64,000 bases of DNA from a virus, in the UHGV virus genome UHGV-2031204; one strand, written 5' to 3'. Both the position numbers and the translations under genes were made by a program. This document shows, one piece after another, positions 2,726 to 59,752 of this stretch. The notes under the pieces were generated by a model. That model made no database searches. It saw nothing but the letters and a program-made list of their open reading frames with translations, and was not told where the DNA came from. The number at the start of each line of letters is the position of its first letter. Within the stretch, counting starts at the first letter, position 1.

Positions 2726-3235
2726 ATGGCAACTAAAGATATTTCGACACAAGATGAGCGCCCGGCAGCTGTAAGACGCGCTGAGGAAAATGCGGTAAAT
2801 TACAGCCAAGATGACGCGTACCAGGTGCGACTTATTGCTACTCAGCTCGATGAGGCTGGCGGGGCAATTAGCCAAAATAAACCGAAAGATACCCCAGAAG
2901 CTGACGACGCTTTCCGTAAGTTACATCAATCGTTCCGTACGTTGTTTGAACTTCGTGGTCAGGCATTCATTGATGCGTTCAATGTGTTCGTTGAGGCTGC
3001 AATTAAACACAAGCGTGGTATCTTCTACTATCCTAATGTGAACTACCATTTAGATTGGTTTTACGATTCTGCTGAACGTGAAACATATGTCGTGTTTATC
3101 AACATGTTAGTACGCTTCGCAAATTCTCAGGATAAAGCAAACTTTGCTCAGCGTGACAACGTTGGACGTTTGGTACAACGTGTGACCGATCCAGAGCTGC
3201 AACACTTGCTGGCTTACTGCTTCAACGCGGCATAA
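2726..3235 (+). CDS. hypothetical protein
   Basis: 169-aa ORF with ATG at 2726, followed by a bidirectional terminator. Confidence 0.8.
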   Translation: MATKDISTQDERPAAVRRAEENAVNYSQDDAYQVRLIATQLDEAGGAISQNKPKDTPEADDAFRKLHQSFRTLFELRGQAFIDAFNVFVEAAIKHKRGIFYYPNVNYHLDWFYDSAERETYVVFINMLVRFANSQDKANFAQRDNVGRLVQRVTDPELQHLLAYCFNAA

Positions 3236-3240
3236 AAGTA

Positions 3241-3283
3241 TTACCCTACTCCCGAAGGAGTAGGGTAACGTTTATTTTTTTAC
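3241..3283. terminator. bidirectional intrinsic terminator between convergent genes
   Basis: Stem-loop ttaccctactcccgaaggagtagggtaa with a T-run on the + side; lies between the + gene ending 3235 and the - gene ending 3280. Near-identical copy at 8599-8626. Confidence 0.7.
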
Positions 3284-5061
3284 CGTGCAGCTTTGATGTA
3301 TTCAAAAGGATCGGTAATCGTTTCTCCTTGTCTACGTAGAAAAGCTTCTAAGACGACATTTTTATCGGGCAATAGGAAGAAATCTGTCGCGATTTCCATT
3401 GCATTGACGCGCCCCGCAGTAAGGTTAATACCGACACGACGCCGTACCTCTTCAGGAACACCGTGAATGCTCAGTAGCTCGATTAACGTTGTTTCACGAG
3501 ACTGGTTCATCATGTTCGTTGCAGATGGGTATGCCTGGGTTAAGTCAGCATCCGCAGTTTGCCCACGGAAAGCCGTGTAGAAATCATCAACTTCTTTGAT
3601 GATGTTTCGTAGCCCATTCTCTGCGTTCATACACGCAGTCAATGTAACAATCCAACCATCCGTCCCAATGACTTCATTGTCGAAATCGTTACGCATCGCG
3701 CTACCCACACAACCGATAACCAGGCCCTGTTCATAGAGGTAATACGTGTATGCAATACAGATTCGCTTCGGCAGAGAAGGGAAAATATCATACATCGAAT
3801 AACCCGCCAAAACTGAAATAGCAGAAGACAGATCGTTCGTCTTTTTATCGAGCAGAACAATCATCAAGTTATCGAAGATGTTATAAACGCAGTATTCTAA
3901 CGGGAAATCTTTCTGCGCCTTTAAGTGCCATTCCAACTTCTCCTCGTAGGGCAGTTCCGGTAAGTCCAACTTGTTTAAACCCAACTCGGTTTCCAGTATC
4001 GCGTTAAGTTTGTAAGAGGGGCGTTGTCCCTCGTGTACACGCAATGAACGGAATAGACACATTGCATCTACACAGTAGAATGACGCCGTACAATAAAGAA
4101 TGTGCCACTGTTGCGAAGGCGCTTTTGTTAATGACTTTGATTCCGTTTTCTTCGATGCTTCGTCTTTCTTAAAGTAGACACGACGGTACTGTTTTGGCAC
4201 GTCAGGATGACAGAAGACGTCTTCCGGTGGAATCCCCGCAGCTTCTAAAGCTTCCAACATACGTGAAATATCGAACTCGTGGTTCCATGCGACGAGTAAG
4301 TCAGGAAGCCGAGGATGGATTTCCTCAAACATCCGTTGAATGCAACAACCTGAATTGAGGCATTCGTAAACGAAGATTTTGTAACCATCGATAACGTTTT
4401 TGTATTTAACGATAGGATTGTCGTTCTCGTCTTTTCCACGAAAAGCGATTTTAGAAAGCAATTCCTGAGCACGTTTGACGAGTCGCGCTTCAAAGTTTTC
4501 ACGCCCACAACGGGTGACGTAGTCTTTCGTAGCAAAGAAATGAATTTCGTCGTCTAAAACAAAACTCATAATCCAGGGGTCTCGAGACTTGTCTTCTTCT
4601 CGAGTTTCCACGTCGTATACACAGATGCGGTTAGGTGAAACAGCATTAGGCCATTTACGTATGTACTTTTCTTTAATCCAGCTAGTAATGGGCAAATCAG
4701 CCCAGTAAACATACGGTGAAGTACAAACCTGACGGAGTGGTTTCTTTTTATCGGGAAAACGAATCCCCAGACCCATCTGTATGGTTGAGGACATCATTAC
4801 GTCCGTTGTTAAATATTCCTGGCACTTACTACGTTCTTCGTATTCTTTCTTTTCCTTGTGATTACGATGTTGTGGTAAAGTAATGTAGATGGGCCGTTTC
4901 AGATTTTCACGCATGACAATTCGTGGGATATATCTGCCATCTTTAGTATGGACGACCTCCTTTATGAGCACGAAGTCGTTTTCTTTCTGCTGATCGGTTG
5001 CGTAAGAAACAAACTTGCACTCCTTGGCAATAACGTCTTCCGGTGCGTAATAGTTATTCAT
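3280..5061 (-). CDS. DEDD-type 3'-5' exonuclease domain protein (possible proofreading or split-polymerase subunit)
   Basis: Translation contains VYDVETREED (Exo I-like D-x-E), WNHEFDISRM (Exo II-like N-x-x-FD) and YCVDAMCL / YNIFDNL (Exo III-like Y-x3-D). No polymerase palm motifs (DxxSLYPS, YGDTDS) seen. Start set at the internal ATG (MNNYYAPED) rather than the track start at 5175. Confidence 0.5.
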   Translation of the reverse strand: MNNYYAPEDVIAKECKFVSYATDQQKENDFVLIKEVVHTKDGRYIPRIVMRENLKRPIYITLPQHRNHKEKKEYEERSKCQEYLTTDVMMSSTIQMGLGIRFPDKKKPLRQVCTSPYVYWADLPITSWIKEKYIRKWPNAVSPNRICVYDVETREEDKSRDPWIMSFVLDDEIHFFATKDYVTRCGRENFEARLVKRAQELLSKIAFRGKDENDNPIVKYKNVIDGYKIFVYECLNSGCCIQRMFEEIHPRLPDLLVAWNHEFDISRMLEALEAAGIPPEDVFCHPDVPKQYRRVYFKKDEASKKTESKSLTKAPSQQWHILYCTASFYCVDAMCLFRSLRVHEGQRPSYKLNAILETELGLNKLDLPELPYEEKLEWHLKAQKDFPLEYCVYNIFDNLMIVLLDKKTNDLSSAISVLAGYSMYDIFPSLPKRICIAYTYYLYEQGLVIGCVGSAMRNDFDNEVIGTDGWIVTLTACMNAENGLRNIIKEVDDFYTAFRGQTADADLTQAYPSATNMMNQSRETTLIELLSIHGVPEEVRRRVGINLTAGRVNAMEIATDFFLLPDKNVVLEAFLRRQGETITDPFEYIKAAR

Positions 5062-5132
5062 GATTTCACTCTCAAATCTAGCGGCTGCTATACTGATTTG
5101 TGGGTAATGTAATTTCTCAAAAGGAAACACAA

Positions 5133-6467
5133 ATGGGATATTGGCAAAATCACATTGCATCAGTTGCGGATGCAAAGGTTGTAGCCGCAGAATCGATTAA
5201 ATTCCAAGACAAAAAGAAGCTGGCAGAATTGGCTGATATTATTGCTAAGTTTCGTGGAGCAGGCGATTTCAGTCCTGCTGGCTACGAAAGTGCCGGGGTT
5301 TCGGATTGGGTATTTAAGAATATCGGCATTACGATTCACTTTAAGAACGGTGGTGAACTGGGTCTTGCTGACGTTGCTTTTGCAGGTGTGGAACCACCGA
5401 AATTGGATGCAAACAGTCCAATCATCGCATCGATGACTCGTGCGCTGTACGCAGGTAACAAAGACCTGGATATGTACAGTAAGTTCATCAAAGAAAACGA
5501 GCTAAACTCAACAATCGATGACAGCAGTGCAAAAATCAGTGGCGATCTGAGCAAAGTGGGTTCTCCGCTTTATCTTACCCCGGTGCTGTTGGAAAAATTA
5601 AATTTGACCGATCTGGAAATCGCCTCGGTGATTCTTCACGAAGTCGGGCACATCTACTATTATTTCCGCACTCTGATGCGCACTGTGGTGACTGATTTGC
5701 TGGCGGATGCTGCGGCTAACCGCATCATGGAAACGGAAGACCAGAATGTCCGCTTGCGTATCGTTAAAGACGTAGAGAAGATGCTGAACACGAAAGTGAA
5801 TCAGCCAGAAACGATTTGTACTGAGTACAAAAAAGAAAACGTCTACATGCACTTGGTCACACAGCTGTTATTAGATCGTCCGTTTATTAGTGGCAGTCAA
5901 GGCTTTGCTAACAGAACGTGGGAACGTGCTGCGGACGATTTTGCTTCCCGTTTCGGAGGCGCTCCTTATCTGGCTTCCGCACTGTATAAAATGGAAACCA
6001 GTTCGTTCTATTTGCTGCGGAACTCAGCGTATATGAACATGGGTGTCCATTTGACAGTAGAACTTTTCCGCGTGACTGCGCTGATAGTCTCTTCTACGAT
6101 TCCAATCATTCCGGTGATCTCCGTGACGTTCGGAATGATCTTAAATGACCCGGATAACACCATTTACGATCCGCCACAGCAGCGTTTTGAGGCAATGCGA
6201 CGTACACTCGTTGAAGAACTCAATACGATTAAAGACAAAAATACGAAAGCTGCTAACGAGCAACGTAAACGTATTTTAGATGGTATTGCGGTTATCGACA
6301 AGTTATTAGAAACCGTAAAAGATAAAGATAACTTGTACCAGTTTATCTGGAATACTTTAACGCCGAAGGGTCGTCGCTCACGTGCTGCAGTTGATTACCA
6401 GCGCGCGATTGGGAAGTATATGTCGAACGATCTTCGTATTGCTTCAGCCATGTTTAATGTCGAATAA
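5133..6467 (+). CDS. putative M48-like zinc metalloprotease with hydrophobic segment
   Basis: HExxH at ILHEVGHIYY, then downstream ERAADDFASRFGG resembling the M48/HtpX third-ligand E-x-x-A-D motif; probable TM stretch LIVSSTIPIIPVISVTFGMIL. ATG at 5133 preceded by aaaaggaaac. Confidence 0.45.
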   Translation: MGYWQNHIASVADAKVVAAESIKFQDKKKLAELADIIAKFRGAGDFSPAGYESAGVSDWVFKNIGITIHFKNGGELGLADVAFAGVEPPKLDANSPIIASMTRALYAGNKDLDMYSKFIKENELNSTIDDSSAKISGDLSKVGSPLYLTPVLLEKLNLTDLEIASVILHEVGHIYYYFRTLMRTVVTDLLADAAANRIMETEDQNVRLRIVKDVEKMLNTKVNQPETICTEYKKENVYMHLVTQLLLDRPFISGSQGFANRTWERAADDFASRFGGAPYLASALYKMETSSFYLLRNSAYMNMGVHLTVELFRVTALIVSSTIPIIPVISVTFGMILNDPDNTIYDPPQQRFEAMRRTLVEELNTIKDKNTKAANEQRKRILDGIAVIDKLLETVKDKDNLYQFIWNTLTPKGRRSRAAVDYQRAIGKYMSNDLRIASAMFNVE

Positions 6468-6481
6468 GTAAAGGTAAAATC

Positions 6482-6925
6482 ATGACGCATAAAGTTTCTT
6501 TAAATTCCCTGGTTCTGGACTTTAAACGTACGAACGAGGGTAAAGGTGTACAGGCACAACGCGCACTGACTGGCCTGGTCGCATTCGCATTGGCTTATAA
6601 TACCGATATGCCCGATAATGGTCCGTTTGGGTCGAATGAAGTGTCGCAGCTAAAGCTTCGCCCGCTGATGAAAAATGTTGTTTCGGACGTAAACGAGCTT
6701 TATTGTGTCGATCTGGGCAGTATTGAAGATTTGACAGTGGCACTGTTTTGTAACCGCTACGATAGCGCTTGGGGTGGTCGTCGCGCTATTGAAAACTTCT
6801 CTGTCCGTGAGATTTTCAATGAAGCCTTGGGCGACGATGTATGGGATACCGTTAATCTGTGGCTGGAACGTTTCATGGAAACGGTGAAATTCTATATGGA
6901 AGAAACGCGAGGCGAGCTGGTATGA
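6482..6925 (+). CDS. hypothetical protein
   Basis: 147-aa ORF; stop overlaps the next start (ATGA). Confidence 0.75.
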   Translation: MTHKVSLNSLVLDFKRTNEGKGVQAQRALTGLVAFALAYNTDMPDNGPFGSNEVSQLKLRPLMKNVVSDVNELYCVDLGSIEDLTVALFCNRYDSAWGGRRAIENFSVREIFNEALGDDVWDTVNLWLERFMETVKFYMEETRGELV

Positions 6926-8592
6926 GTATGGAGATGACAGCAAACATTGCGCAACCGCAGTGGAAACTCGATGAACTTCCTGCACTGTTAGAACAGCGTA
7001 TGGAAGAACGCATCGATTCTGTTAGCCAACTCAATCTCTACATGCAACGTAATGAAGCAGACCTGATTTACGGTTCTCGCCTTATCGCGCAAATTGAAGC
7101 GATCTTACGGGAAATACGTAATGCAGGGTTGAACCGTGATGTTGCTGTGGCGACTGAATCGTTGCGTCCTGGCACAATCCCGAAGGCGGTACAAAGTGTT
7201 CTGACGTCGAATTATTCCAAAACACACCAGAAAGAAACGGTGGTGGCATTAGAGTCTTACGCTAATTTTGGTAAGATTAGCCTTATCGTGATGGTGATGA
7301 TGGGGATAATGAAAATCCTCAGTTGGATTATCAGCAACGCCGTTCCTTTTGCAGGTGCTGCGAATATTGACGGGAACGACTATCGTGAGAAACTGGAAGA
7401 GAAGTTGGCCGATGTTCCTTTCACAGAGCGCCTGAAAACAACCGTACTGAAAGAAGTTTATCTGGTACTGTCAAAAGGTTTGAAAGACAGCGAGTTAAGC
7501 AACCTGGAGTTATCTCTTTCGCTGGCCGACGACGTTTTCGTGAACATGGAAGCTGAAGAGTTTCTAAATAAACTCGCCGCTGCGTTAGGTAAATCACCGT
7601 TTATCGATACGTTTAAGAACCATCTTAAACGTCGGCAGAATGAGTTGCAGGTTATTCAGGATCTGCTCGATACGCTGCTTCGGACGAATATCGGTTACGG
7701 TGTATTTGACTTCGGGGTTGCTGAGGAAGTCTATAACGGTTTGCCGCCTGATGTGAAACGTGCTGGAGTGAACATTCCGTCAGATATTCAGTTCAACTTA
7801 ATGAGCACGCTTCTTGACAGTTTTGCCGGTGCGCTTCAGGACTTAGACCAGTCGCTGAAAGACATCAAAACGTATTACCTGTCGAATAATCCGAAGGTAG
7901 GCACATCGCAAGAGAACCAAGTCGCCGCTGTGCATCTGGTTCGTGCGTTAGGCGAGATCAATGGCCGAATTGAATATACTGCCACGGAATTTGGACGACA
8001 GAAAGGTAGCCCGGGTCCAATTTTGCGTGTAAAAGACAAGGTTGAGCTTCTCGGCTATACCACACGTGAATTAGACAACGGTTGGATGATTGCGTCGATC
8101 GGTGCTAACTCTTTCTTTGGCTCCACAACAAATCTGGAGATGATGCGCCAGGAGTTGAGCTTAAGTAACGGGGATTACCGTGAGCTGTTGGCATGTCTGA
8201 TTACACTGGCACGTAGTGGTATCTCGGATGGTGTGGCGAACACCGCACTAGACAAGTATAAGGTGTTGGAGAAACGTGTCGATCAGGTTGTAAAAACCTT
8301 GAAAGATATGGCGCGCCAATCACGTTCTGGCGTCGACAGTCAGAAATGGCAGGCGATGGAACAGGCGTTTAAAGACCAGGTGACGCGAGGGGAGAACTTT
8401 AACCTTCATGGTCGTGAGCTGACCACGATGATGGTGTTAAACCCTGACCGTAATGTCTGGGATTCTGTTGCGCACAGTGCAAACATGATTAACATGTGGT
8501 GCAAGGCCGCAGGGTCTATGGCAACGGTGTTGAAGCGTGCCAAGTCCAACCCACTTGTGAAAGGCGGGAAGTTCAATAAATTGATTGATTAA
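6922..8592 (+). CDS. hypothetical membrane-associated protein
   Basis: Long ORF; the in-frame ATG at 6922 overlaps the upstream stop; hydrophobic segment ISLIVMVMMGIMKILSWIISNAVPFAGAA. Confidence 0.75.
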   Translation: MSMEMTANIAQPQWKLDELPALLEQRMEERIDSVSQLNLYMQRNEADLIYGSRLIAQIEAILREIRNAGLNRDVAVATESLRPGTIPKAVQSVLTSNYSKTHQKETVVALESYANFGKISLIVMVMMGIMKILSWIISNAVPFAGAANIDGNDYREKLEEKLADVPFTERLKTTVLKEVYLVLSKGLKDSELSNLELSLSLADDVFVNMEAEEFLNKLAAALGKSPFIDTFKNHLKRRQNELQVIQDLLDTLLRTNIGYGVFDFGVAEEVYNGLPPDVKRAGVNIPSDIQFNLMSTLLDSFAGALQDLDQSLKDIKTYYLSNNPKVGTSQENQVAAVHLVRALGEINGRIEYTATEFGRQKGSPGPILRVKDKVELLGYTTRELDNGWMIASIGANSFFGSTTNLEMMRQELSLSNGDYRELLACLITLARSGISDGVANTALDKYKVLEKRVDQVVKTLKDMARQSRSGVDSQKWQAMEQAFKDQVTRGENFNLHGRELTTMMVLNPDRNVWDSVAHSANMINMWCKAAGSMATVLKRAKSNPLVKGGKFNKLID

Positions 8593-8598
8593 AAAAGA

Positions 8599-8642
8599 TT
8601 ACCCTACTCCCGGAGGAGTAGGGTAACTTTTATTATTTTTTC
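8599..8642. terminator. bidirectional intrinsic terminator (copy of the 3241 hairpin)
   Basis: ttaccctactcccggaggagtagggtaa plus T-run; differs from the 3241 copy by one loop base; sits between convergent genes. Confidence 0.7.
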
Positions 8643-11597
8643 TTAATCGGCGGTAGTATCGTGACGGTTATAGACAATAACGATATCGTCTTTAAGTCCG
8701 ATGTCACCGCTGGCCTCAATGTCCAGCTTTTTACCTATAGTTGCTCTTGATGCTTCCGAAACAACGGTAAAGAGACGCATGTCTTTATCTGGTCCCATAG
8801 CATCGAGTTCAACACCGATAATAGACGCATCGAGGGTTTCACTCAACGCATTACCGATTTCTGTTGCAGAGATTGTTAGATGACTACCCAAGTAATCATT
8901 GATAACCTGAGACGTTTTCTTACGAATCTGCGTTAAGAGCTCGGTGTTATTACGGTTAGCAGCTGTTAGGTAATAACGCACGGTGAACTGGTTTTCCGCA
9001 GGGACAGGCGTCACTACCCCGTCCTCGGTACGGGCGTCGATATACCCCATTGTTGTAATCGGCACAAAGTAACCTTCGGTACGTTCTAACAACATAGGCT
9101 TCAAAGTTGGCAATATTACCGTAACGTAGTTAACGATGTTTTCGATAACTTCATTCAGATACGATTTTGCAGAAGGTGTCGTCGCGAATTTATATCGCGC
9201 ATCGAATACCGCCATCTCACTACGGAATTTGATAGAACGCGATTTCGCAATCTTCGGATTGCCGAATTCGTCTTTAACTAAGTCTCCTTCACGATGTAGG
9301 ACGATCTGTTGTCCAGCCTCGTCGAGTTTTGGATCACCTTTACGATGCTCGTACGTAATCTGAAGTGGTGGCGTGCGACCTGCGTCGTAGGTGTAGATTG
9401 GTACACCGTTCTCATCGCGTTTAACCACATCGATTTCCCACGTTGCCATCACGTCTTTTTCGTAATACTGGTAGTTAATGCTGTCAGTAACAGCACGCGC
9501 TTTACGCCAGTAGTACGTCATTGCTTTACCCAATTCGATTTTGAAAATCTCGTGAGTAATACCAATCGCATCGCGTGACGGGGCAGTGATTAACGCATCC
9601 ATTTCCGCACGTTCGTAATTACCAGGATAATAACCGGTGCAGCCGTAGAACAGGTTGAAGTCCGTCATCAACGGTACAGGCGTTTCCGTGGGTGTGCTAC
9701 TACTAATGCGTGTATTCGTTAGCATTAATTCGTCGTTACGGTCAACGTCTAGGTTGGTTTCCAGCAGGAATTCCCATACGCGCTCACTACCCTGTTTACC
9801 GACTAACGTACCGTTGATATACGCTAAAGTGTTGTCTGCGTTACGTGGACGGAACGATAGCTGTGCAAAAACTTGATCGTCAGTCAGTGCTTGATAAGGT
9901 GCCTCTGACTTCGTTACGGTACGCAATACATAACCGGCCTCGGTCTTTTCGATAGTGTAGTCGGCTGTTACCACACTGAGTTCCGTGCTTACGTTAGTGG
10001 CAATAAAGCGTTTGGAGTTTAACGTCGGTTTATCTAATTGATAAATACGAACGTCAATGGCTTTATTGTTGATATCCACAACGTAATGGAATGGTGTAAA
10101 GAGATAACGATTAGCGTTGGCCGCGTTAATCAAATCTTCTTTACGCATGGTTTTTGCCAAGACCGTCATCTCCGCATCAACCGTCAGGCTGGTGTCGGTG
10201 AACCGATAAAGTGTGTCAGGAAGAATCGTCAGGCGATTACCGTTAACCTTTACCGTCGGTAGATTAACCAATTCATTCCAGGAGAAATAGAACGGTGCCG
10301 TGATCGTCCCGATGGGAGAACTGACATTGGGAATTGTCGATTCGAGCATCGGTGCCGTTAAGAAGTATGTACGGCTAGTAACATAGTCGTTTGGCTTCGA
10401 CAACGTTAGACCGTAATCAGAAACCGTTGCTTCTAATTGTTTCTCCGTTACAGGGAGTTTTCGTGCACCTACAGCGTTATTGACTACACGTGTACGCAAA
10501 TCTTCGAACGTGAGCTGGCTACGACCACCTGACAACATTTTACCTGCTTTTGCAGCCATCTGTTTGATGGAAAAACTCTTAATCGGGTTAACGTAGTTTT
10601 CGTCGTATTCACCGTTTAAATCACGCAATGTAAACGTGTATTCGTCAGACGGATAAGCCGAGATATCGACACTTAAAGGTCCTAAGGTCGTGTAGATATC
10701 CATACGAATTTCACCACTGACCAAATTCTTCGCCATGTAGATCGAGGGGATAGTACACCGTATAACACCGTCACCGACCTGGATTAACGCGGTTGGGGTG
10801 TTGGGGTCGTAAACGTCACGACTGTGCGTATGCTGAATTTCAACCCACTTGTTATCGTTGGTTGATTTCATCCACACCCTTACGTAGAAAAATTTGTTAG
10901 TGTAATGGCGGGTCATGACAAAGGTATTTTTCCCTGCAACGGTGTCACTTTCGTTCTTCACCGCATACTGCATGACCGGGATATGGATTGCCAGTAGTTG
11001 CGAGGCCGTGGTGTTAGACGACGTCAACTCCCAATCCAGCGCATTCGTCGACACAGGAGAAATCGGTGACTGTGTTTCGGTAATCCAAAGAACTTGAAAC
11101 GCTGGGTTTTCATTGGTACCGTAAGGAAGTACCCTGATTTCAATCGGGTACTGGATGGCAAAGGTGTAACCTGACACCGTGAAAACTGTGTCACGTGGGA
11201 TAACAACCTTACGCACACCCGCAATCTGTAAAGGGTACGCCTTGGAGATTAAACTATCAACATCGATTAATAACAACAACTCGGTGGTTGAAGGTTGGGC
11301 GAACACATCAACGTAGTCCACATCGGACATATGTCGGAACAGGTCATCGTACGTTTGCGCCATCGATGGAAATGTCTTTGGCACTGATTCTTGCAACCCC
11401 ATAAGCGTTGCATGGCCCAACATTGTCCCCATTTCCGCCAAATAAACAACAGGGTCTGTTGGGTCACGTAACACTATTTGGCCTTCGGCGTCTTCTACAT
11501 CCAGAAGCTGATTCAAGAGCAGTGTTTGCATCGCTGCCGGATGGTGGGCAAACAACAATATGTTCTTTGCCAAAGTATCGTAAGTCGTAGAACTCAT
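8643..11597 (-). CDS. hypothetical large protein (984 aa), possibly structural
   Basis: Long uninterrupted ORF on the minus strand, start overlapping the stop of the upstream minus-strand gene at 11597. Confidence 0.8.
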   Translation of the reverse strand: MSSTTYDTLAKNILLFAHHPAAMQTLLLNQLLDVEDAEGQIVLRDPTDPVVYLAEMGTMLGHATLMGLQESVPKTFPSMAQTYDDLFRHMSDVDYVDVFAQPSTTELLLLIDVDSLISKAYPLQIAGVRKVVIPRDTVFTVSGYTFAIQYPIEIRVLPYGTNENPAFQVLWITETQSPISPVSTNALDWELTSSNTTASQLLAIHIPVMQYAVKNESDTVAGKNTFVMTRHYTNKFFYVRVWMKSTNDNKWVEIQHTHSRDVYDPNTPTALIQVGDGVIRCTIPSIYMAKNLVSGEIRMDIYTTLGPLSVDISAYPSDEYTFTLRDLNGEYDENYVNPIKSFSIKQMAAKAGKMLSGGRSQLTFEDLRTRVVNNAVGARKLPVTEKQLEATVSDYGLTLSKPNDYVTSRTYFLTAPMLESTIPNVSSPIGTITAPFYFSWNELVNLPTVKVNGNRLTILPDTLYRFTDTSLTVDAEMTVLAKTMRKEDLINAANANRYLFTPFHYVVDINNKAIDVRIYQLDKPTLNSKRFIATNVSTELSVVTADYTIEKTEAGYVLRTVTKSEAPYQALTDDQVFAQLSFRPRNADNTLAYINGTLVGKQGSERVWEFLLETNLDVDRNDELMLTNTRISSSTPTETPVPLMTDFNLFYGCTGYYPGNYERAEMDALITAPSRDAIGITHEIFKIELGKAMTYYWRKARAVTDSINYQYYEKDVMATWEIDVVKRDENGVPIYTYDAGRTPPLQITYEHRKGDPKLDEAGQQIVLHREGDLVKDEFGNPKIAKSRSIKFRSEMAVFDARYKFATTPSAKSYLNEVIENIVNYVTVILPTLKPMLLERTEGYFVPITTMGYIDARTEDGVVTPVPAENQFTVRYYLTAANRNNTELLTQIRKKTSQVINDYLGSHLTISATEIGNALSETLDASIIGVELDAMGPDKDMRLFTVVSEASRATIGKKLDIEASGDIGLKDDIVIVYNRHDTTAD

Positions 11598-12921: not shown

Positions 12922-14028
12922 ATGTTAGAAAAAACGTTTGAGACAAGCGTTGTCTCTTTCCTCTCCAGACTTCCCATGCTGTTTCGTTCGCGTGCGGAGT
13001 CGATGGAGGAATTTAACTCAGTGCTCTATAACGAGCACATTACCTTAGTCGAACAAAGCCTGCTGGGTTTAGATTACCTTCCGGGAATTCTGGAGAAAAT
13101 CCAAATTTTGCTGGCAGGAAACCAATTAACGGCTATCTCACTGTTAACCGGTGTACCGGATGTTGACATTATCGGTACCCTGGATCAGGTCAGCACACGT
13201 CGTAGTGCGCTTGATAACGCAGTCCGCACCGGTTCCCGCTTAGCAGCGCTTGCAGTCGGCGAATCTGCCCGTTATGGTTTACCATCATACGATAAAATCG
13301 GCATTGCAGTCGGCGAATCTGCCCGACGGGTCGCCCAGGAATCAAAAGGTTCGGTCAGTGGCGGGAAAGGTGATCCGATTAAACAGCTTTTCGATCAAGA
13401 AGGGTTGTCCAACGGGAAAATGTTCTCAGTAACATTCGAACGTGACGGTAATAAAGTCGAACTCCCAATGCGTTTACGTTTGGATGTGAAATCCTTACCG
13501 ACCGAACAAATTGAAACACTGATTGCGTTCAGTGACCAGACGAAAACATTCTGGGAACGTTGGCTGCGTGCACGCGTTGGCGCGTTGAGTTACGTAAAAG
13601 ACATTGCGTTCTGTAACGACCTGGTAGAAGAATATCGTAAGAACCGTTATCGCGATAAGTCCGGTTATTACCGTAAGATGATGGAGAAGAAGAACGGTAA
13701 CTGGTTGTCTGGCCTGCTGTCTTTGGCACCGTCTATCAATAACGCCTCTTCCGTTATGGTGGTTTCTCAAGACACCATTGACGGCTTGACCGCACAACTA
13801 GGTGGTGAATTTGACGATTTCAATATCCGTCAGCGTGTGTTCAAAGACACCTTGACTGTCTACTATGTTGTTGTGGACACCACCTGGAATCGTGTCACTA
13901 TTTATACCCGTGGTCAGAACGGCTCTCAGGAACTCGATAAATCTGACTTTAGTAAATCGAAGTCTGGTAGCGCCGATGTAAATAAAATCATCGAAGCGTA
14001 TCGCTCTGGCGCTCAGCCAGTTCTTTAA
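12922..14028 (+). CDS. hypothetical protein
   Basis: 368-aa ORF with aggaaa RBS; contains an internal direct repeat encoding AVGESAR twice. Confidence 0.8.
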   Translation: MLEKTFETSVVSFLSRLPMLFRSRAESMEEFNSVLYNEHITLVEQSLLGLDYLPGILEKIQILLAGNQLTAISLLTGVPDVDIIGTLDQVSTRRSALDNAVRTGSRLAALAVGESARYGLPSYDKIGIAVGESARRVAQESKGSVSGGKGDPIKQLFDQEGLSNGKMFSVTFERDGNKVELPMRLRLDVKSLPTEQIETLIAFSDQTKTFWERWLRARVGALSYVKDIAFCNDLVEEYRKNRYRDKSGYYRKMMEKKNGNWLSGLLSLAPSINNASSVMVVSQDTIDGLTAQLGGEFDDFNIRQRVFKDTLTVYYVVVDTTWNRVTIYTRGQNGSQELDKSDFSKSKSGSADVNKIIEAYRSGAQPVL

Positions 14029-15611: not shown

Positions 15612-16883
15612 ATGGCAAATTTCGCAAAAACTCGCGCCGCTCGTGAATCGATGGAAGCGGCCGATGAAGTAATCGACGGTATCAGCAACGTTGAACCGGC
15701 AGAAGAGAACCTGGACGTCCAACTTGCGGACGTAGCATCTATCGACGGTCAGCTCGATCAGCTGGAAACCGACGGTGAAACCCTGGCTGCCGATACCGAG
15801 CGTACTGAAGACGCTATCGAACAGGCGGAAGAAGCCGTTGCTAACGGTGAAGAAATGCCGGAAGAAGCGGTTGCCCTGCACGAAGTGGCACAGGAATCCA
15901 TCGCACGTCGTTGGTGCCTGGAACGTACTAAACTGGCACGCGAATCCTATCGCCGTGGTCGTGGTATGACTGCTGCTGCCCAGGAAGGTTGGAAAGAAAC
16001 CCTGAAAGATCTTTACGATCGTTTCATTCAGTTCTGTAAAGAAGTGATTGCGAAGATCAAAGACCTGAAACTGAAATATTTCAACGTCGGTAAGACCGCA
16101 CAGAAACGTGCGAAGAAATATCAGGAAATGCTGCGTAAGCTGGGCAAACAGAAGAAAGATGAGATCTCTGGTGGCTTTATCACCAAGCTGTCTATCGAAG
16201 GTAAATTCGATGCCGCTGGCTCTATCGCTATTGCGAAAGAAGTTACCGCAGGTAAAGCTAAAGGTTCCATCGCTGTTCTGGAAAAACAAGCTGGTGAAGC
16301 TGTGACTGCCGTTACCAAAGGTGACGATGACGCATTCAAAGCAATGCGTGGCGATCAGCCGGTAGAACTGTTTGGTAAAGCTGCTTCTAAACTGCACACT
16401 CTGCCGAACTTTGAAAAAGGTGATGCGTCTAAACTCCTGGCTCTGCCGGGCAACGCTTACGTTCAGGCTGGTACTAAAGAACTGGCTGGCGGCCACAAGT
16501 TCACCGCAATTGCTTTCATGAGCACCGGTGACGCTTCTGACGATAAAGACGTGAAAACTCCGTCTGTTTCTGAAATGGCTGGTGCTGCTTCTGCTCTGGA
16601 AGCGATCGGTAAAGGTTTCGAAGCCGTACTGAAAGATTTCCGTGCTTACGATTCTGAAATCGTGAAGCTGCAACAGGCTGCTGAGAATGCTGCTAAGGCG
16701 CTGAACAACGAAAAAGACGATAGCAAGTGGGATGGCCTGCGTAACGCACGTCAAGCTGCCGATTGGTCTGTTAAGAACTACCAGACCCTGAACCGCGCAG
16801 TTAGCTATGTTGCTAACACCGTTATTAGCGGTCTGAATGGCTACCTGGGTGCTGGTATCGGTGCTTACGAAAAATCTAAATAA
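15612..16883 (+). CDS. abundant protein, paralog A of a tandem pair (probable virion component)
   Basis: 423 aa; strongly host-optimised codons (CGT, CTG, GGT, AAA, GAA); acidic N-terminal region; shares MANF..ARESME start, KLGKQKKDEISGGFI core and GYLGAGIGAYEKSK C-terminus with the next gene. Confidence 0.9.
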   Translation: MANFAKTRAARESMEAADEVIDGISNVEPAEENLDVQLADVASIDGQLDQLETDGETLAADTERTEDAIEQAEEAVANGEEMPEEAVALHEVAQESIARRWCLERTKLARESYRRGRGMTAAAQEGWKETLKDLYDRFIQFCKEVIAKIKDLKLKYFNVGKTAQKRAKKYQEMLRKLGKQKKDEISGGFITKLSIEGKFDAAGSIAIAKEVTAGKAKGSIAVLEKQAGEAVTAVTKGDDDAFKAMRGDQPVELFGKAASKLHTLPNFEKGDASKLLALPGNAYVQAGTKELAGGHKFTAIAFMSTGDASDDKDVKTPSVSEMAGAASALEAIGKGFEAVLKDFRAYDSEIVKLQQAAENAAKALNNEKDDSKWDGLRNARQAADWSVKNYQTLNRAVSYVANTVISGLNGYLGAGIGAYEKSK

Positions 16884-16965
16884 TCATTTAGATTCGTAGT
16901 TCCGTACAGTTCTTGAAATAAATCATCAGGGGAACAATACGTTCCCCTTAGAGGAAAAGCTTAAA

Positions 16966-18231
16966 ATGGCGAATTTCTACAAAAACAAAATTGCTCGTGA
17001 GTCTATGGAGTCTACTTCTACTGTAGTTCCAGACGGCATCGAACTGCCAGCAGAATCCGTAGAAGGCACTCTGGCCGATATCGAGCATGACACCAAACCG
17101 ATCGAAGCTCTGGACGCTGACGCTGAACTGCTGGCAGAAGACGGCGACGAAACTGACGCTCAGCTGGATGTTCTGGATGAAGCTCAGGCTGCTGCTGACG
17201 GTGAAGGTGCAGGCGAAGACGGTGAAGAACCGATGGATGCCGAAGAAGATATGCCGGACGACGCTGCGACTGCGCTGGACGTTGCTCAGGAATCTATCCG
17301 TTCTCGTTGGAACTTCGAACACCGTTCTTCTGTTGCACACGAATCCTACGGTTCTCGTAACCGTCGTCAGGTTGCTCGTGAATCCCTGTGGGAAGACATC
17401 AAAGCCTTCCTGGGCCGTATTCTCGATTGGCTGAAAGAACAAGGCCGCAAACTGAAAGATCGCTGGCTGAAATTCCACAACCAGGGTAAATCTATTCAGG
17501 CACGTGCTAAGAAATACGATGAAGTTATTCGTAAGCTTGGCAAACAGAAGAAAGATGAGATCTCTGGTGGCTTTATCAAGTCTCTGTCTATCGACGGCAA
17601 GTTCGTCGGTGATAATATTCCGAAACTGAAAGGTATCCTTAACCAGGTCTCCTCGTTCTATAGCGCTAAGATGCCTGCCATGGCCGCTAAAGCTGCTGAA
17701 GTGGTTTCCGATGTTACCAAAGGTAATGGCGTTAAAGTTGAAAAACTGAAAGCCGACTTTACCGAACTGTCCAAACAAGACAGTCTCCAAAACTTCAAGC
17801 TCGGTAACATGGCGGTGAAAACCGAGTATGACAACGAAGGCGGCTTCAGCTCCACCTTTGTTGAAGCTGAAAACAGCGTTGAAACTAGCGTGAAAACTCC
17901 GTCTGTTGGCGAACTGGCCAAAATCAATGCTCTCTTCAACGAAGTGGGTAAACAGATTGAGAAGAACGTTCAGGATTATCGTAAAGTCGAAAGCGCGCGG
18001 AAAACCTTTGAAGATAATATCGATAAGCTCCTGAAAGAAGTCGATAAAGTTAAGATCGACGAAAAACCGGAACTGACCGAAGGTGTACGTGCTGCCCGTC
18101 GTTTCATCACCAGCGTTAACCAGGGTCTGTCTCTGGGTGAGAAGGTTATTGCTTCTACTCAGAAACACCTGGCCGGTGGTCTGAACGGTTACCTGAGTGC
18201 CGGTATCGGCGCTTACGAAAAATCTAAATAA
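16966..18231 (+). CDS. abundant protein, paralog B of a tandem pair (probable virion component)
   Basis: 421 aa; same codon bias and shared blocks as 15612-16883, including a long near-identical nucleotide stretch around 17531-17606. Confidence 0.9.
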   Translation: MANFYKNKIARESMESTSTVVPDGIELPAESVEGTLADIEHDTKPIEALDADAELLAEDGDETDAQLDVLDEAQAAADGEGAGEDGEEPMDAEEDMPDDAATALDVAQESIRSRWNFEHRSSVAHESYGSRNRRQVARESLWEDIKAFLGRILDWLKEQGRKLKDRWLKFHNQGKSIQARAKKYDEVIRKLGKQKKDEISGGFIKSLSIDGKFVGDNIPKLKGILNQVSSFYSAKMPAMAAKAAEVVSDVTKGNGVKVEKLKADFTELSKQDSLQNFKLGNMAVKTEYDNEGGFSSTFVEAENSVETSVKTPSVGELAKINALFNEVGKQIEKNVQDYRKVESARKTFEDNIDKLLKEVDKVKIDEKPELTEGVRAARRFITSVNQGLSLGEKVIASTQKHLAGGLNGYLSAGIGAYEKSK

Positions 18232-18249
18232 TCCCTGATTGTTTAGTAA

Positions 18250-18297
18250 GAGAACCACCCTGTAATGGGGTGGTTCTCTCTTTTCTTTTTTTTTCGA
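18250..18297 (+). terminator. intrinsic terminator
   Basis: agagaaccaccctgtaatggggtggttctct followed by a long T-run. Confidence 0.75.
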
Positions 18298-18310
18298 TTA
18301 AAATAATTTT

Positions 18311-18334
18311 CAGATATATATTACCTAGGTGAGA
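18311..18334 (+). promoter_or_regulatory. conserved promoter-like motif, copy 1 (cagatatatattacctaggtgaga)
   Basis: Identical 24-mer recurs at 26567 and, with 2 mismatches, at 54090; always just after a terminator and about 50 nt before a start codon; followed by an inverted repeat gagattac/gtaatctc. Confidence 0.55.
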
Positions 18335-20772: not shown

Positions 20773-20806
20773 AAAAGGGGACTTCGGTTCCCTTTTATTT
20801 TTTTTT
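20773..20806 (+). terminator. intrinsic terminator
   Basis: ggggacttcggttccc hairpin followed by a long T-run. Confidence 0.7.
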
Positions 20807-26447: not shown

Positions 26448-26566
26448 TCCTAAACGACACGCAGAAGTCATTTAACCGTTAAGACGACTAATTACCCTTT
26501 AAAAAGAAAATTGCGTCAGAATGCGTTTTAGAGCGTTCTAGAGGGTATATGGATTCAAAAAGATTT

Positions 26567-26590
26567 CAGATATATATTACCTAGGTGAGA
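26567..26590 (+). promoter_or_regulatory. conserved promoter-like motif, copy 2 (cagatatatattacctaggtgaga)
   Basis: Exact copy of the 18311 24-mer, about 45 nt upstream of the small ORF at 26637. Confidence 0.55.
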
Positions 26591-26785: not shown

Positions 26786-26817
26786 AAGGCACCTTCGGGT
26801 GCCCTTAATTTTTTTAT
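26786..26817 (+). terminator. intrinsic terminator
   Basis: aaggcaccttcgggtgccctt followed by a T-run. Confidence 0.75.
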
Positions 26818-27650: not shown

Positions 27651-27656
27651 AAGCAA

Positions 27657-27699
27657 CCCCTAATCCCGAAAAGGATTAGGGGTACACTTTATTTATTTT
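27657..27699 (+). terminator. intrinsic terminator
   Basis: cccctaatcccgaaaaggattagggg followed by a T-rich tract. Confidence 0.7.
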
Positions 27700-27947
27700 C
27701 GCAAATTCAACAACTTGGATTAAATAAAAGGCTTAAAGCCACTAACAATCATCGAGTACAGATCTTCACCGAAAGGAGAAGTAACTACTAAATAAAATAA
27801 AGGGGTGTGACAGCACCCCTTATCAAAGCTTTAACTTTTCGAAAAGAGAAGTTAAAGCAGGGTACGCTGTAGCACCAGCGTACCCTTTACAGCACCACCA
27901 CGTTTCCGTAGTGGATTTCTTTAATCACCCTACAAAGAGGGCTTACC

Positions 27948-28121
27948 ATGAACAATGGTTACTACTTTACTGACAAAATGCTTGCAGAACAGAGTGCAGC
28001 AAAGACCAATTTACAGCAACGTATCTACAAGTATAGTCAGCTCGGCATGGATAAACGGTTAAAACCGTCTACCAACCGTTTCACGCAGATATTCACCGAA
28101 AAGAGGAGTGAACACTACTAA
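27948..28121 (+). CDS. small protein (57 aa), cassette family member 1
   Basis: Below the ORF-track cutoff. ATG at 27948 preceded by aaagaggg; translation MNNGYYFTDKMLAEQSAAKTNLQQRIYKYSQLGMDKRLKPSTNRFTQIFTEKRSEHY; shares Q-R-I/M-x-x-Y-x-x-LG with the next small ORF. Confidence 0.5.
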   Translation: MNNGYYFTDKMLAEQSAAKTNLQQRIYKYSQLGMDKRLKPSTNRFTQIFTEKRSEHY

Positions 28122-28345
28122 CAAATAAAGAGGAGGCGTGTCAGCGCCTCCCCTCCTCGTACAGTAACCTGCCGAGATGGTGGTCGTAGGTATAATAAAA
28201 AGGGGTGCACCACCACCCCTTTTCTTAGCTTTAACTTTTCCGAAGAGAAGTTAAAGCAGTAGAGACTGTTCCATCAGTCTCTACTGTACGGTGACAACGC
28301 ATAAAGTTGTTGACGTTTTTACAACATTACAAAAGGTAATGAAAA

Positions 28346-28507
28346 ATGAACGAATATCAAATACAGATGTTCAATACCGCGATGCGAAATCGTGAAAAAC
28401 AAATTCAGTTTAACCAACGCATGGACGAATATGTTCGTCTCGGCCTCGTTGCGGCACCGAAAACGGTTAACAATCACAATGTTCACCAACCACCTGTAAG
28501 GAGATAA
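28346..28507 (+). CDS. small protein (53 aa), cassette family member 2
   Basis: Below the ORF-track cutoff. Translation MNEYQIQMFNTAMRNREKQIQFNQRMDEYVRLGLVAAPKTVNNHNVHQPPVRR; same cassette context as 27948-28121. Confidence 0.5.
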   Translation: MNEYQIQMFNTAMRNREKQIQFNQRMDEYVRLGLVAAPKTVNNHNVHQPPVRR

Positions 28508-28650
28508 GTTACTAACTAATAAAGGGGGTGGCAGCAACACCCCCTACTTAGTTCAGTAGTTGTTTCCCGTTCATAATTAATAGCCTTCTGTTTTTTTTTG
28601 TTTTTCGAGACGCATAAGGGGTCATAAGGGGGAGCCGAAGCTCCCCAGAC

Positions 28651-33073: not shown

Positions 33074-33115
33074 GTCTAAGCCCTTCGGGGCTTAGACCTT
33101 TTATTTTTTTTTCTT
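33074..33115 (+). terminator. intrinsic terminator
   Basis: gtctaagcccttcggggcttagac followed by a long T-run. Confidence 0.8.
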
Positions 33116-33240
33116 TCTATTATTTTTTGGATAGATATTATTAAAGGGAGACGGCCAGTTGGTTTTAAAGGAGTATGTATGGAAAAAATACAGTTTAAAC
33201 TAAAGATATGTGTCATCATTAAAATTTAGCTTGGGTTCCC

Positions 33241-38022: not shown

Positions 38023-38032
38023 TCGCCCCACA

Positions 38033-48793: not shown

Positions 48794-48807
48794 TAACATC
48801 ACCGATA

Positions 48808-52654: not shown

Positions 52655-52742
52655 ACCCTAAATTTTATTACAGATTGATATTATCAATGTGACAACCGTA
52701 GTGAGTCGGTAACTCACCAATTTAAAAAAAGAGAGATAAATT

Positions 52743-54050: not shown

Positions 54051-54088
54051 GGTACCACCCAACGGTGGTACCTATATTTTATTTTTTC
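54051..54088 (+). terminator. intrinsic terminator
   Basis: ggtaccacccaacggtggtacc followed by a T-rich tract. Confidence 0.75.
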
Positions 54089-54089
54089 T

Positions 54090-54113
54090 CAGATATATTT
54101 TACTTAGGTGAGA
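54090..54113 (+). promoter_or_regulatory. conserved promoter-like motif, copy 3 (cagatatattttacttaggtgaga)
   Basis: Matches the 18311/26567 24-mer with 2 mismatches; directly after a terminator; followed by inverted repeat agagtta/taactct; about 50 nt before the HTH gene start. Confidence 0.5.
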
Positions 54114-55228: not shown

Positions 55229-55260
55229 GGGGAACTTCGGTTCCCCTTTCTTTTTTTGTT
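55229..55260 (+). terminator. intrinsic terminator
   Basis: ggggaacttcggttcccc followed by a long T-run; related to the 20773 hairpin. Confidence 0.75.
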
Positions 55261-58154: not shown

Positions 58155-58661
58155 ATGAAAGAGACTCTGGATTTTAATCAGCTGGAGCAGCACGATTTTG
58201 ATCTCGGTGTTCGCAACTTAGAAGCTGACTACGAAACACGTTGTAAAGAATTCTTTAATCGCTACGGGCAATTGATTACCGGGGCGTCTGAAGACACCGA
58301 ATTCTCGTTAGACGATTTCGAAAAGATTCTGTCTTGCTTTATCACCGACAGCTTAGCGAAACAGGCGTTGCTGGTAGAACAGAACCTGCAAATGGTGGAG
58401 CCTACGGATGCTCACGCCGTACTAAAAGAATCCATTATTCCGAATGACGAAATTATGGATGCGGTAGCAGGTATTCGCGGTACGTTCGACACAGCTGTGG
58501 AAGACTATACCGAACAGCTTCGTGAGTCTGGGTTAACGTTGTGTGCACCTGCGGGCGAACAGTTACCTTCTGAAGAAGAAACGGAAGAAGCACGCAGTCG
58601 CTTAGCGCGCTATGTGATTACTTCTATTTTAGTAGACGATCGCGAAGAAAACGTACTGTAA
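58155..58661 (+). CDS. hypothetical acidic protein
   Basis: 168-aa ORF, D/E-rich; terminator follows. Confidence 0.75.
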   Translation: MKETLDFNQLEQHDFDLGVRNLEADYETRCKEFFNRYGQLITGASEDTEFSLDDFEKILSCFITDSLAKQALLVEQNLQMVEPTDAHAVLKESIIPNDEIMDAVAGIRGTFDTAVEDYTEQLRESGLTLCAPAGEQLPSEEETEEARSRLARYVITSILVDDREENVL

Positions 58662-58665
58662 ACTT

Positions 58666-58706
58666 CCCCTCTCTCCGTTTGGAGAGAGGGAGTATTTATT
58701 TTTACG
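58666..58706 (+). terminator. intrinsic terminator
   Basis: cccctctctccgtttggagagaggg followed by a T-rich tract; identical stem-loop recurs at 59713. Confidence 0.75.
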
Positions 58707-59363: not shown

Positions 59364-59380
59364 TGACAGTCTAAAAAACT

Positions 59381-59405
59381 TAAGATATATTTCATCTATG
59401 TGAGA
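59381..59405 (+). promoter_or_regulatory. degenerate copy of the promoter-like motif, overlapping a perfect palindrome
   Basis: taagatatatttcatctatgtgaga shares the GATATAT and GTGAGA blocks; GTGAGAATTCTCAC (59398-59411) is a perfect 14-bp palindrome; about 30 nt before the ATG at 59437. Confidence 0.35.
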
Positions 59406-59436: not shown

Positions 59437-59706
59437 ATGGCTAAGATTTACATTGTTGAGAAACGTGCGGCTAATGTTCTTTCTTATTACGAAGAAGGTA
59501 AGCCTGAGAAAATCAAAACACTCAAACTCGACGGGTATGATGTGAAGAGTTTACGTAAGGGTGTGAAGATTACCTTTAAAGGTCTGACTCGCGTAAGTAA
59601 CTTACACATTGTTAAAGCCGATGGTACGATGGTTGCGTTAGCACCTGTCAGTGCTGCGAAAACGACAGCAGGTCGTGGCTGCTACGGTAGCAGTCGTAAG
59701 ATTTAA
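59437..59706 (+). CDS. hypothetical protein
   Basis: 89-aa ORF with aatggagtaatc RBS; terminator follows. Confidence 0.7.
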   Translation: MAKIYIVEKRAANVLSYYEEGKPEKIKTLKLDGYDVKSLRKGVKITFKGLTRVSNLHIVKADGTMVALAPVSAAKTTAGRGCYGSSRKI

Positions 59707-59712
59707 GCAGTG

Positions 59713-59752
59713 CCCCTCTCTCCGTTTGGAGAGAGGGTACTTTTATTTTTAT
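59713..59752 (+). terminator. intrinsic terminator (copy of the 58666 hairpin)
   Basis: cccctctctccgtttggagagaggg followed by a T-rich tract. Confidence 0.75.

Follow-up and report, generated by a model that had tools for sequence, protein, structure and literature searches.

Terminators with a common motif have been mapped in two phages of the phiKZ type. In phiKZ, 61 intrinsic terminators determined by ONT-cappable-seq share the motif 5'-BCCYCCCCHWWDGGGRRGGBYTTATKYYGT-3', six of them being bidirectional and located between convergent genes (PMC10914365), and a like pattern was described for 201phi2-1, with 59 terminators carrying motif A and 15 bidirectional sites (PMC11512511). The window considered here, i.e., the whole stretch of 64,000 nucleotides analysed from the UHGV virus genome UHGV-2031204, contains two pairs of nearly identical hairpins, designated 1A and 1B (family 1; 3241-3268 and 8599-8626) and 2A and 2B (family 2; 58666-58690 and 59713-59737). 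These four hairpins are probably ordinary terminators, which have become alike through the ectopic copying of a small terminator pool between gene junctions. The window belongs to an undescribed SPN3US/Erskinevirus-like jumbo phage of the Chimalliviridae, which among characterised phages is nearest to Erskinevirus and Seoulvirus (SPN3US); this phiKZ family includes both Erskinevirus and Phikzvirus, so that the window shares the family in which the phiKZ-type motif was described. The best DNA matches of the window among deposited phages were the Erwinia jumbo phages, at 75-79% identity, with none closer, and it is collinear with the segment at ~39-110 kb of Erwinia phage Stratton (Erskinevirus), most genes of clear homology having an amino-acid identity of 40-85%. 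Closer relatives were found in IMG/VR, namely contig 113438 (220 kb), with ~93-94% identity to the window, and contigs 078609 and 095954, with ~80-96% identity varying by segment.

The hairpin 1A, TTACCCTACTCC-CGAA-GGAGTAGGGTAA, forms the centre of a bidirectional terminator module (3234-3281) composed of the upstream A-run ATAAAAGTA, a perfect 12-bp stem (3241-3252/3257-3268), the loop CGAA and the tail CGTTTATTTTTTT, with a folding energy of -25.0 kcal/mol on the + strand and -26.4 kcal/mol on the - strand. The bidirectional module 1B (8592-8639) is composed of AAAAAAGA, the same 12-bp stem (8599-8610/8615-8626) closed by the loop CGGA, i.e., TTACCCTACTCC-CGGA-GGAGTAGGGTAA, and the tail CTTTTATTATTTT. 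Thus, the stems of 1A and 1B are perfect and identical, a single difference lies in the loop, and the likeness, at 90%, reaches into the A-rich leader and the T-rich tail, for 48 nt in all. The second pair is CCCCTCTCTCCGTTTGGAGAGAGGG at both positions, identical over 25 nt and alike at 90% over 39 nt. The terminator 2A (58666-58704, + strand) has the stem CCCTCTCTCC/GGAGAGAGGG, the loop GTTT and the tail AGTATTTATTTTTA, is unidirectional and begins 5 nt past the stop codon of the gene at 58155-58661, and the terminator 2B (59713-59751, + strand) has the same 25-nt hairpin with the tail TACTTTTATTTTTA, 7 nt past the stop codon of the gene at 59437-59706. All four hairpins start 5-7 nt past stop codons (3235, 8592, 58661, 59706) in intergenic gaps; their folding energies are -22 to -28 kcal/mol, and their z-scores relative to shuffled sequences -5.2 to -7.5. 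No further copies of either family were found in the window at up to three mismatches, none being expected from 100 shuffles.

Since the arm composition of the hairpins is restricted, the null for their identity was a column shuffle of the arms that keeps the C-rich and G-poor composition of the 5' arm. Among the 13 terminator-like hairpins of the window with arms of at least 10 nt, two identical pairs were observed against 0.0002 expected, so that both pairs, found exactly where the original prediction had placed them, are far more alike than chance would allow. That such identity arose at random, or that the sites converged independently on one very stable stem, is consequently hardly credible and may be regarded as effectively excluded, although the G-poor 5' arm does raise the random similarity and the 8-bp core CCTACTCC..GGAGTAGG alone occurs in many unrelated viral contigs among the IMG/VR matches listed. 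The presence of this core in EL, OBP-sized or other contigs is not informative: a core of 8-10 bp is expected to recur among millions of natural hairpins, and therefore only the enrichment within a genome is informative. In the complete genome of Stratton, which was taken into the hairpin census, identical arm pairs numbered eight against 0.016 expected under the same composition-preserving null, and the copies share their loops, spacers and tails as well.

In their anatomy the four hairpins are typical intrinsic terminators: each has a perfectly paired stem of 10-12 bp, poor in G on its 5' arm and rich in G on its 3' arm, and a T-rich tail with the TTTAT signature at 0-4 nt from the stem. This gives no support to the proposal that the reuse serves a specific element rather than generic termination. 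The pentamer TTTAT is found in 13 of the 26 terminator-like tails of the window against 5.1 expected from shuffles (maximum 11), and the G fraction of the 5' arms is 0.11 in the bidirectional hairpins. Both 1A and 1B were called terminators on both strands by the terminator scan and combine a position between convergent genes, a palindromic stem and an A-tract mirroring the T-tract, as had been noticed from the sequence at the outset; the A-run at 1A is, however, short. Pair 2 lacks the upstream A-tract, and its neighbour genes are co-directional. By analogy with the mapped terminators, the nascent RNA would fold into the perfect 10-12-bp stem with its G-poor 5' and G-rich 3' arms, the polymerase would release at the U-rich tract with the TTTAT signature directly 3' of the stem, and the palindrome of pair 1 between its A-tract and T-tract would stop convergent transcription from both strands. 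The C/Y-rich 5' arm, the G/R-rich 3' arm and the YTTAT tail, i.e., the phiKZ-type architecture, are present at many terminators of the window, and the four hairpins may accordingly be assigned, by this likeness, to the Rho-independent terminators of a clade-wide and genome-wide class, with the stem sequence being clade-specific. No match to Rfam 15 at the gathering threshold was obtained anywhere in the window.

The comparison of sites 1A and 1B across 17 genomes with conserved gene order revealed two different modes of change. At site 1B, the orthologous hairpin is kept across genera, with 9 of the 12 pairs changed on both sides (14 genomes), and therefore the selection acts on the structure and not on the exact sequence. 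At site 1A, the stems are unrelated in some genera (CCTCTCTACCC in Seoulvirus; ACCTCACTACCC in Caitlin and pEa_SNUABM_9), while in Erskinevirus and in the window lineage the site bears a copy of the genome's own 1B-type stem. The stems at 1A and 1B, respectively, are TACCCACTCC and CTACCCACTCC in Stratton, TACCCACTCC and CTACCTACTCC in Asesino, CCTCTCTACCC and CTACCCACTCC in pEa_SNUABM_29, CCTCTCTACCC and CTACCCTCTCC in SPN3US, ACCTCACTACCC and CTACCCACTCC in pEa_SNUABM_9/_4, ACCTCACTACCC and CACCCACTCC in Caitlin, CCCTACTACTC(C) and CCCACCTCC in Wellington, CTACCTACTCC and ACCTACTCTCC in Machina, and TTACCCTACTCC and T(T/G)ACCCTACTCC in the window lineage, the 1B stem CTACCCACTCC being thus common to Stratton, pEa_SNUABM_29 and pEa_SNUABM_9/_4. 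A simple rearrangement leading from the 1A-type stem CCTCACTACCC to the 1B-type CTACCCACTCC was considered and rejected, with only a low-complexity resemblance found. In Derbicusvirus, the two convergent genes at site 1A are separated by an additional small gene that has a terminator to itself, AGGGTGGTG-TTAGCG-CACCACCCT (CR5, L014:7054-7376; Phobos, L153:2320-2627).

Several sites of one lineage share a lineage-specific stem variant. In the window lineage, TACCCTACTCC stands at all the sites that correspond by orthology to gp174/175 (ATTACCCACTCC) and gp222/223 (CTACCTACTCC, found in SPN3US too) of Stratton; TACCCACTCC, present in four copies in phiEaH2, three in ChrisDB and two in SPN3US, is absent from the window-lineage contigs. 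The 11-bp stem TACCCTACTCC/GGAGTAGGGTA was found by a variable-loop scan in IMG/VR at no fewer than five junctions in 113438 and at five in 078609, mostly between convergent genes. Pair 2 is a two-copy family that is alike in the window lineage only, the Stratton orthologues of 2A and 2B being unlike each other and unlike family 2. Moreover, the copies share such parts without obvious constraint as the spacers, the tails and the loops (CGAA/CGGA and GTTT/GTTT in the window; TTTGCG or its reverse complement CGCAAA at four sites of Stratton; TTTACG at two sites of ChrisDB), and therefore the copying of whole 40-48-nt modules fits better than convergence. The sites within one genome thus appear to be repeatedly overwritten by a locally dominant variant, which is concerted evolution. 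The duplication or recombination between sites that had been proposed from the sequence alone is borne out by these lineage-specific variants and by the different hairpins that the outgroups carry at 1A and 2A/2B, as well as by the flanking genes, which are not paralogous.

The latter genes all belong to different PHROG families, and therefore the repeats are not leftovers of gene duplication, an origin that can be ruled out. Site 1A lies between the 3' ends of a + strand gene for a protein of 169 amino acids and unknown function (2726-3235, phrog_7825) and a DNA polymerase gene on the - strand (3280-5175, phrog_3011), and site 1B between those of a + strand gene for a 577-residue protein (6859-8592, phrog_8131) and a - strand gene for a 984-residue protein (8643-11597, phrog_3248), whose product has 80% amino-acid identity to Stratton gp64, a putative virion structural protein. 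The genes ending at 2A and 2B, both on the + strand, encode proteins of 168 (58155-58661, phrog_8221) and 89 amino acids (59437-59706, phrog_12339).

In Stratton, the census gave 41 perfectly paired hairpins whose stems measure 9 bp or more, ~14 of which are variants of the family 1 theme, such as TACCCACTCC (four copies), (TA)CCCTACTCC (four copies, one being the window stem) and the TACCTACTCC-type stems; by reading of the annotation tables, 11 of the ~15 convergent junctions in Stratton bear a family 1 variant. Each of the words ACTC, CTAC and TACC is present in 13-15 of 40 Stratton arms against ~2.8 expected, ACTC in 15 of them against 2.9. A diverged relative of family 1 in the window, ACCCCTAATCC-CGAAAA-GGATTAGGGGT (27656-27683), with the flanks ATAAA and TTTAT, is orthologous by collinearity to ACCCTACTCC-TTCG-GGAGTAGGGT of Stratton. 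Outside the phages, the genomes of 185,579 bacterial and archaeal species gave only two single-copy matches to the hairpin, both in unrelated metagenome-assembled genomes; the hairpin is virtually absent there and is therefore not a host element. Two CC(C)TACCCACTCC..GGAGTGGGTAGG(G) hairpins without T-rich tails were seen in a distant jumbo-phage contig, IMGVR_UViG_638276680_000001 (211,215 bp; L165:3148-3175 and L185:4105-4132), and the CCTACCCACTCC stems on several other unrelated contigs as well, either by chance, given the restricted arm composition, or as a wider motif.

These distributions bear also on the main rival of the copying explanation, according to which the stem is a specific RNA or DNA recognition element for a phage-encoded factor, the lineage variants reflecting co-evolution; the candidates for such a factor in the Chimalliviridae would be a cofactor that helps the multisubunit RNA polymerases of the phage to terminate, or a protein for 3'-end binding, stability or export in these nucleus-forming phages. 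It owes its place as the main rival to the parallel change of several sites within a lineage, which fits the co-evolution with a reader, and to the words that persist across genera; the strong over-representation of CTAC and ACTC in the Stratton arms and the near-absence of the hairpin from bacterial and archaeal genomes also speak for it. However, a single genome contains three or more stem variants alongside many unrelated stems, the family 1 stem is found on just 2 of the ~21 terminator-like hairpins of the window, the orthologous stems change by compensatory pairs, the loops are free to vary and flip, and unrelated stems stand at 1A in sister genera with the same flanking genes. The sharing of the unpaired spacers, loops and tails is likewise better explained by copying than by selection. 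A lineage-specific stem read by a co-evolving factor is thus unlikely, and the binding site for a phage factor suggested in the original prediction retains little support in view of the variable and flipping loops, the compensatory pairs at 1B and the several variants per genome. If true, it would explain the joint switching of several junctions and the conserved terminator motifs across the family. As for the free divergence of the hairpins in related genomes, which the original prediction had named as a refutation, the outcome was mixed: the loops and some whole hairpins have diverged freely, but the stems stay perfect.

The copying explanation finds a further footing in the loops, which vary freely across the 17 genomes and are often exact reverse complements between close relatives, with the flanks unchanged. 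Five such pairs were found between close relatives and one within Stratton, namely CGGA/TCCG at 1B (window and 113438), CGAGA/TCTCG at 1A and TTTTCG/CGAAAA at 1B (both between 078609 and 095954), TTTTCG/CGAAAA at the gp222/223 site and CGGA/TCCG at the hairpin neighbouring it (both between L020 and L023), and TTTGCG/CGCAAA between 1A and 1B of Stratton. A flip with one substitution was seen between Machina and pEa_SNUABM_6 at 1A and between L017 and both L024 and L027. No loop flip was found in the unidirectional pair 2 across the four genomes compared. Exact loop inversion in perfect hairpins, one-step multi-base compensatory changes and the keeping of perfect stems have been described as the footprints of template switching (Monttinen and Loytynoja 2022, PMC8794818).

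Accordingly, the process may be imagined as follows. A small pool of hairpin variants with the consensus TACC(C/T)(T)ACTCC-loop-GGAGT(A)(G/A)GGTA would exist in the genome, and whole modules of ~40-48 nt, comprising the A-tract, stem, loop and T-tract, would be copied repeatedly onto other terminator sites by short-patch gene conversion or by replication template switching between similar modules, for which reason the paralogous terminators would evolve in concert. Within the palindromes, template switching or recombination between the two arms would give the perfectly paired stems and the inverted loops, the same inversions being expected from either. A UvsX-like recombinase is encoded in Stratton (gp239). 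In the tandem paralogues at 15612-16883 and 16966-18231 (orthologues of Stratton gp69 and gp70), which have 36% protein identity, the DNA identity is 91% over the final 56 nt, stop codon included (16830-16885 and 18178-18233), and these 3' ends look like the products of local short-patch gene conversion.

Several points weigh against the explanation by copying. The hairpin census of the window phage covered only the 64-kb window and fragments of its relatives. The parallel change of several sites per lineage is expected as well from the co-evolution with a sequence-reading factor, and the persistence of CTAC, ACTC and TACC in the stems across genera is not obviously predicted by conversion alone. 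The two routes of copying, gene conversion and template switching, stand side by side. The published phiKZ consensus gave zero matches in the window at up to three mismatches, and the termination by the phage or host polymerase is ascribed to these hairpins from the behaviour of phiKZ and 201phi2-1.

Several other repeats were observed in the window. An AT-rich motif of approximately the form AGATATATATTACCTAGGTGAGA occurs on the + strand only, at 18296-18334, 26552-26590, 52656-52694, 54075-54113 and 59367-59405, with a weaker copy at 33113-33151, each copy being intergenic, with a + strand gene downstream of it; the motif lies directly 3' of a terminator at 18296, 33113 and 54075 and farther from any terminator at 26552, 52656 and 59367, and it is probably a class of phage promoter. 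A similar promoter-like sequence, GGATAGATATCATCAGGGTGACA, follows the 1A terminator of Cronobacter phage CR5 (L014, ~7110). None of the four hairpins of the window is adjoined by the AGATATATATTACCTAGGTGAGA-type motif. A third family of reused terminators, GGGRAC-TTCG-GTTCCC with a T-tail, was found at 20777-20804 and 55230-55257, with a weaker copy at 26788-26815; the copy at 20777 has a G.U wobble, and such wobbles are confined to the unidirectional terminators of the window. The unidirectional terminators of Stratton share AGGnGACC-TTCG-GGTCnCCT at 98470, 138574, 164641 and 170116 (L033:48470, L034:38574, L035:14641 and L035:20116), and similar stems are present in the window, AGGAGAGC-TTCG-GCTCTCCT at 38032 and AGGAGAGAACC..GGTTCTCTCCT at 48807, which suggests a second terminator family in the clade. 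A tandem repeat of ~400 bp at 27790-28600, between a + strand gene and a helicase gene, is built of stacked hairpins, AAGGGGTG..CACCCCTT and GCTTTAACTT..AAGTTAAAGC, the latter with another stem of 11-12 bp behind it, and holds two small + strand open reading frames (ORFs), 27948-28121 and 28346-28507, whose similarity (E = 0.025) is too weak for paralogy to be accepted. An exact 22-nt direct repeat (13250-13271 and 13304-13325), with the copies 54 nt apart and in frame within the ORF 12922-14028, would encode a repeated peptide.

Two known kinds of dispersed palindromic elements may be compared with these hairpins. The enterobacterial repetitive extragenic palindromes (REP) and the bacterial interspersed mosaic elements (BIME) built of them, and the inverted-repeat terminators of the DNA uptake sequences (DUS) and uptake signal sequences (USS) of Neisseria and Haemophilus, are palindromes of specific sequence that recur at the 3' ends of many genes, frequently where two convergent genes meet; GTAG/CTAC is a word typical of REP heads, and REPs need the RAYT transposases, while DUS/USS need the DNA-uptake machinery. 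The phage hairpins, too, are short palindromes present in several copies at the 3' ends of genes, often in convergent junctions, and contain GTAG/CTAC, so that a small mobile element, REP/BIME-like or similar to the miniature inverted-repeat transposable elements (MITE), spread by a transposase or derived from the host, might be thought of (for the REP context, see PMC1525189). Neither the RAYT nor the DNA-uptake dependence applies here, however, and the two unrelated single-copy matches among the species genomes, the lack of a transposase among the 288 annotated features of Stratton and the replacement of existing terminators at fixed syntenic positions, with no insertion at new places, leave such an element with next to no probability; like chance, it is effectively excluded.

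Like the hairpins, the promoter early stem-loops (PeSL) of the T4 type are short regulatory stem-loops of which a large virulent phage carries repeated copies scattered over its genome, and these give homology enough for recombination between otherwise unrelated sites; they differ as a composite of an early promoter and a stem-loop that bounds indels in the hyperplastic regions (PMC2839356, PMC4122927). If the terminators were recombination modules of this kind, shuffling or inverting cassettes, they would be the ends of mobile modules at 3.2-8.6 kb and 58.7-59.7 kb. Each pair does bound a segment as direct repeats and, because the stems are palindromes, as inverted repeats as well, and the pair-2 interval varies, with a 278-bp indel in 078609 and three genes in Stratton, the middle one of which, gp129, is without a counterpart among the window ORFs of at least 50 amino acids. 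On the other hand, the gene order over 1A-1B is kept in all 17 genomes, the indels of the pair-2 interval are internal and do not have the hairpins as end-points, none of the four hairpins has a promoter motif attached, both copies of pair 1 sit where the 3' ends of two genes face each other, and no relative was found with an interval deleted, inverted or replaced. Unlike the PeSL, the hairpins are thus promoterless, with pair 1 in a conserved core region, and it is the terminator itself that is replaced and not the genes between the copies; the assignment to PeSL cassettes was rejected for the lack of a fused promoter and of an indel or replacement bounded by copies, and the shuffling of cassettes is very improbable, more so than the recognition by a factor.

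Two further known systems remain to be compared, the template switching in hairpins and, as the closest precedent, the conserved terminator motif of phiKZ and 201phi2-1. The footprints of template switching are the same as in PMC8794818, where they concern rRNA and microRNA genes, with the events occurring within a single hairpin; unlike these, here they are found in phage terminators, the flips occur at most of the sites compared between close relatives, and the copying between sites is needed in addition. The mildly new part of the present analysis is the evidence that, in the SPN3US-like jumbo phages, terminators evolve in concert and often invert their loops. This is a neat case, on a small scale, of regulatory hairpins outside the coding sequence that undergo concerted evolution in one phage genome, where palindromic terminators flip their loops at high frequency and keep perfect stems without visible mismatched intermediates. 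For the annotation of these genomes, the repeats are to be taken as terminators and not as a new element, with the G-poor arm, the TACCYACTCC-type stem and the TTTAT tail as the SPN3US-like signature. With the motifs of phiKZ and 201phi2-1, the hairpins share the Chimalliviridae as carriers, the pyrimidine/C-rich 5' arm, the purine/G-rich 3' arm, the short loop, the T-tail containing TTAT, the many copies per genome and the bidirectional copies between convergent genes. They differ in the stem, which is CCYCCCC in phiKZ and TACCYACTCC here and is longer in the latter (10-12 bp), and in that the earlier reports describe the motif only, without copying between sites or loop inversion (PMC10914365, PMC11512511); the copying offers an explanation for the conserved terminator motifs already reported in the phiKZ-type phages.

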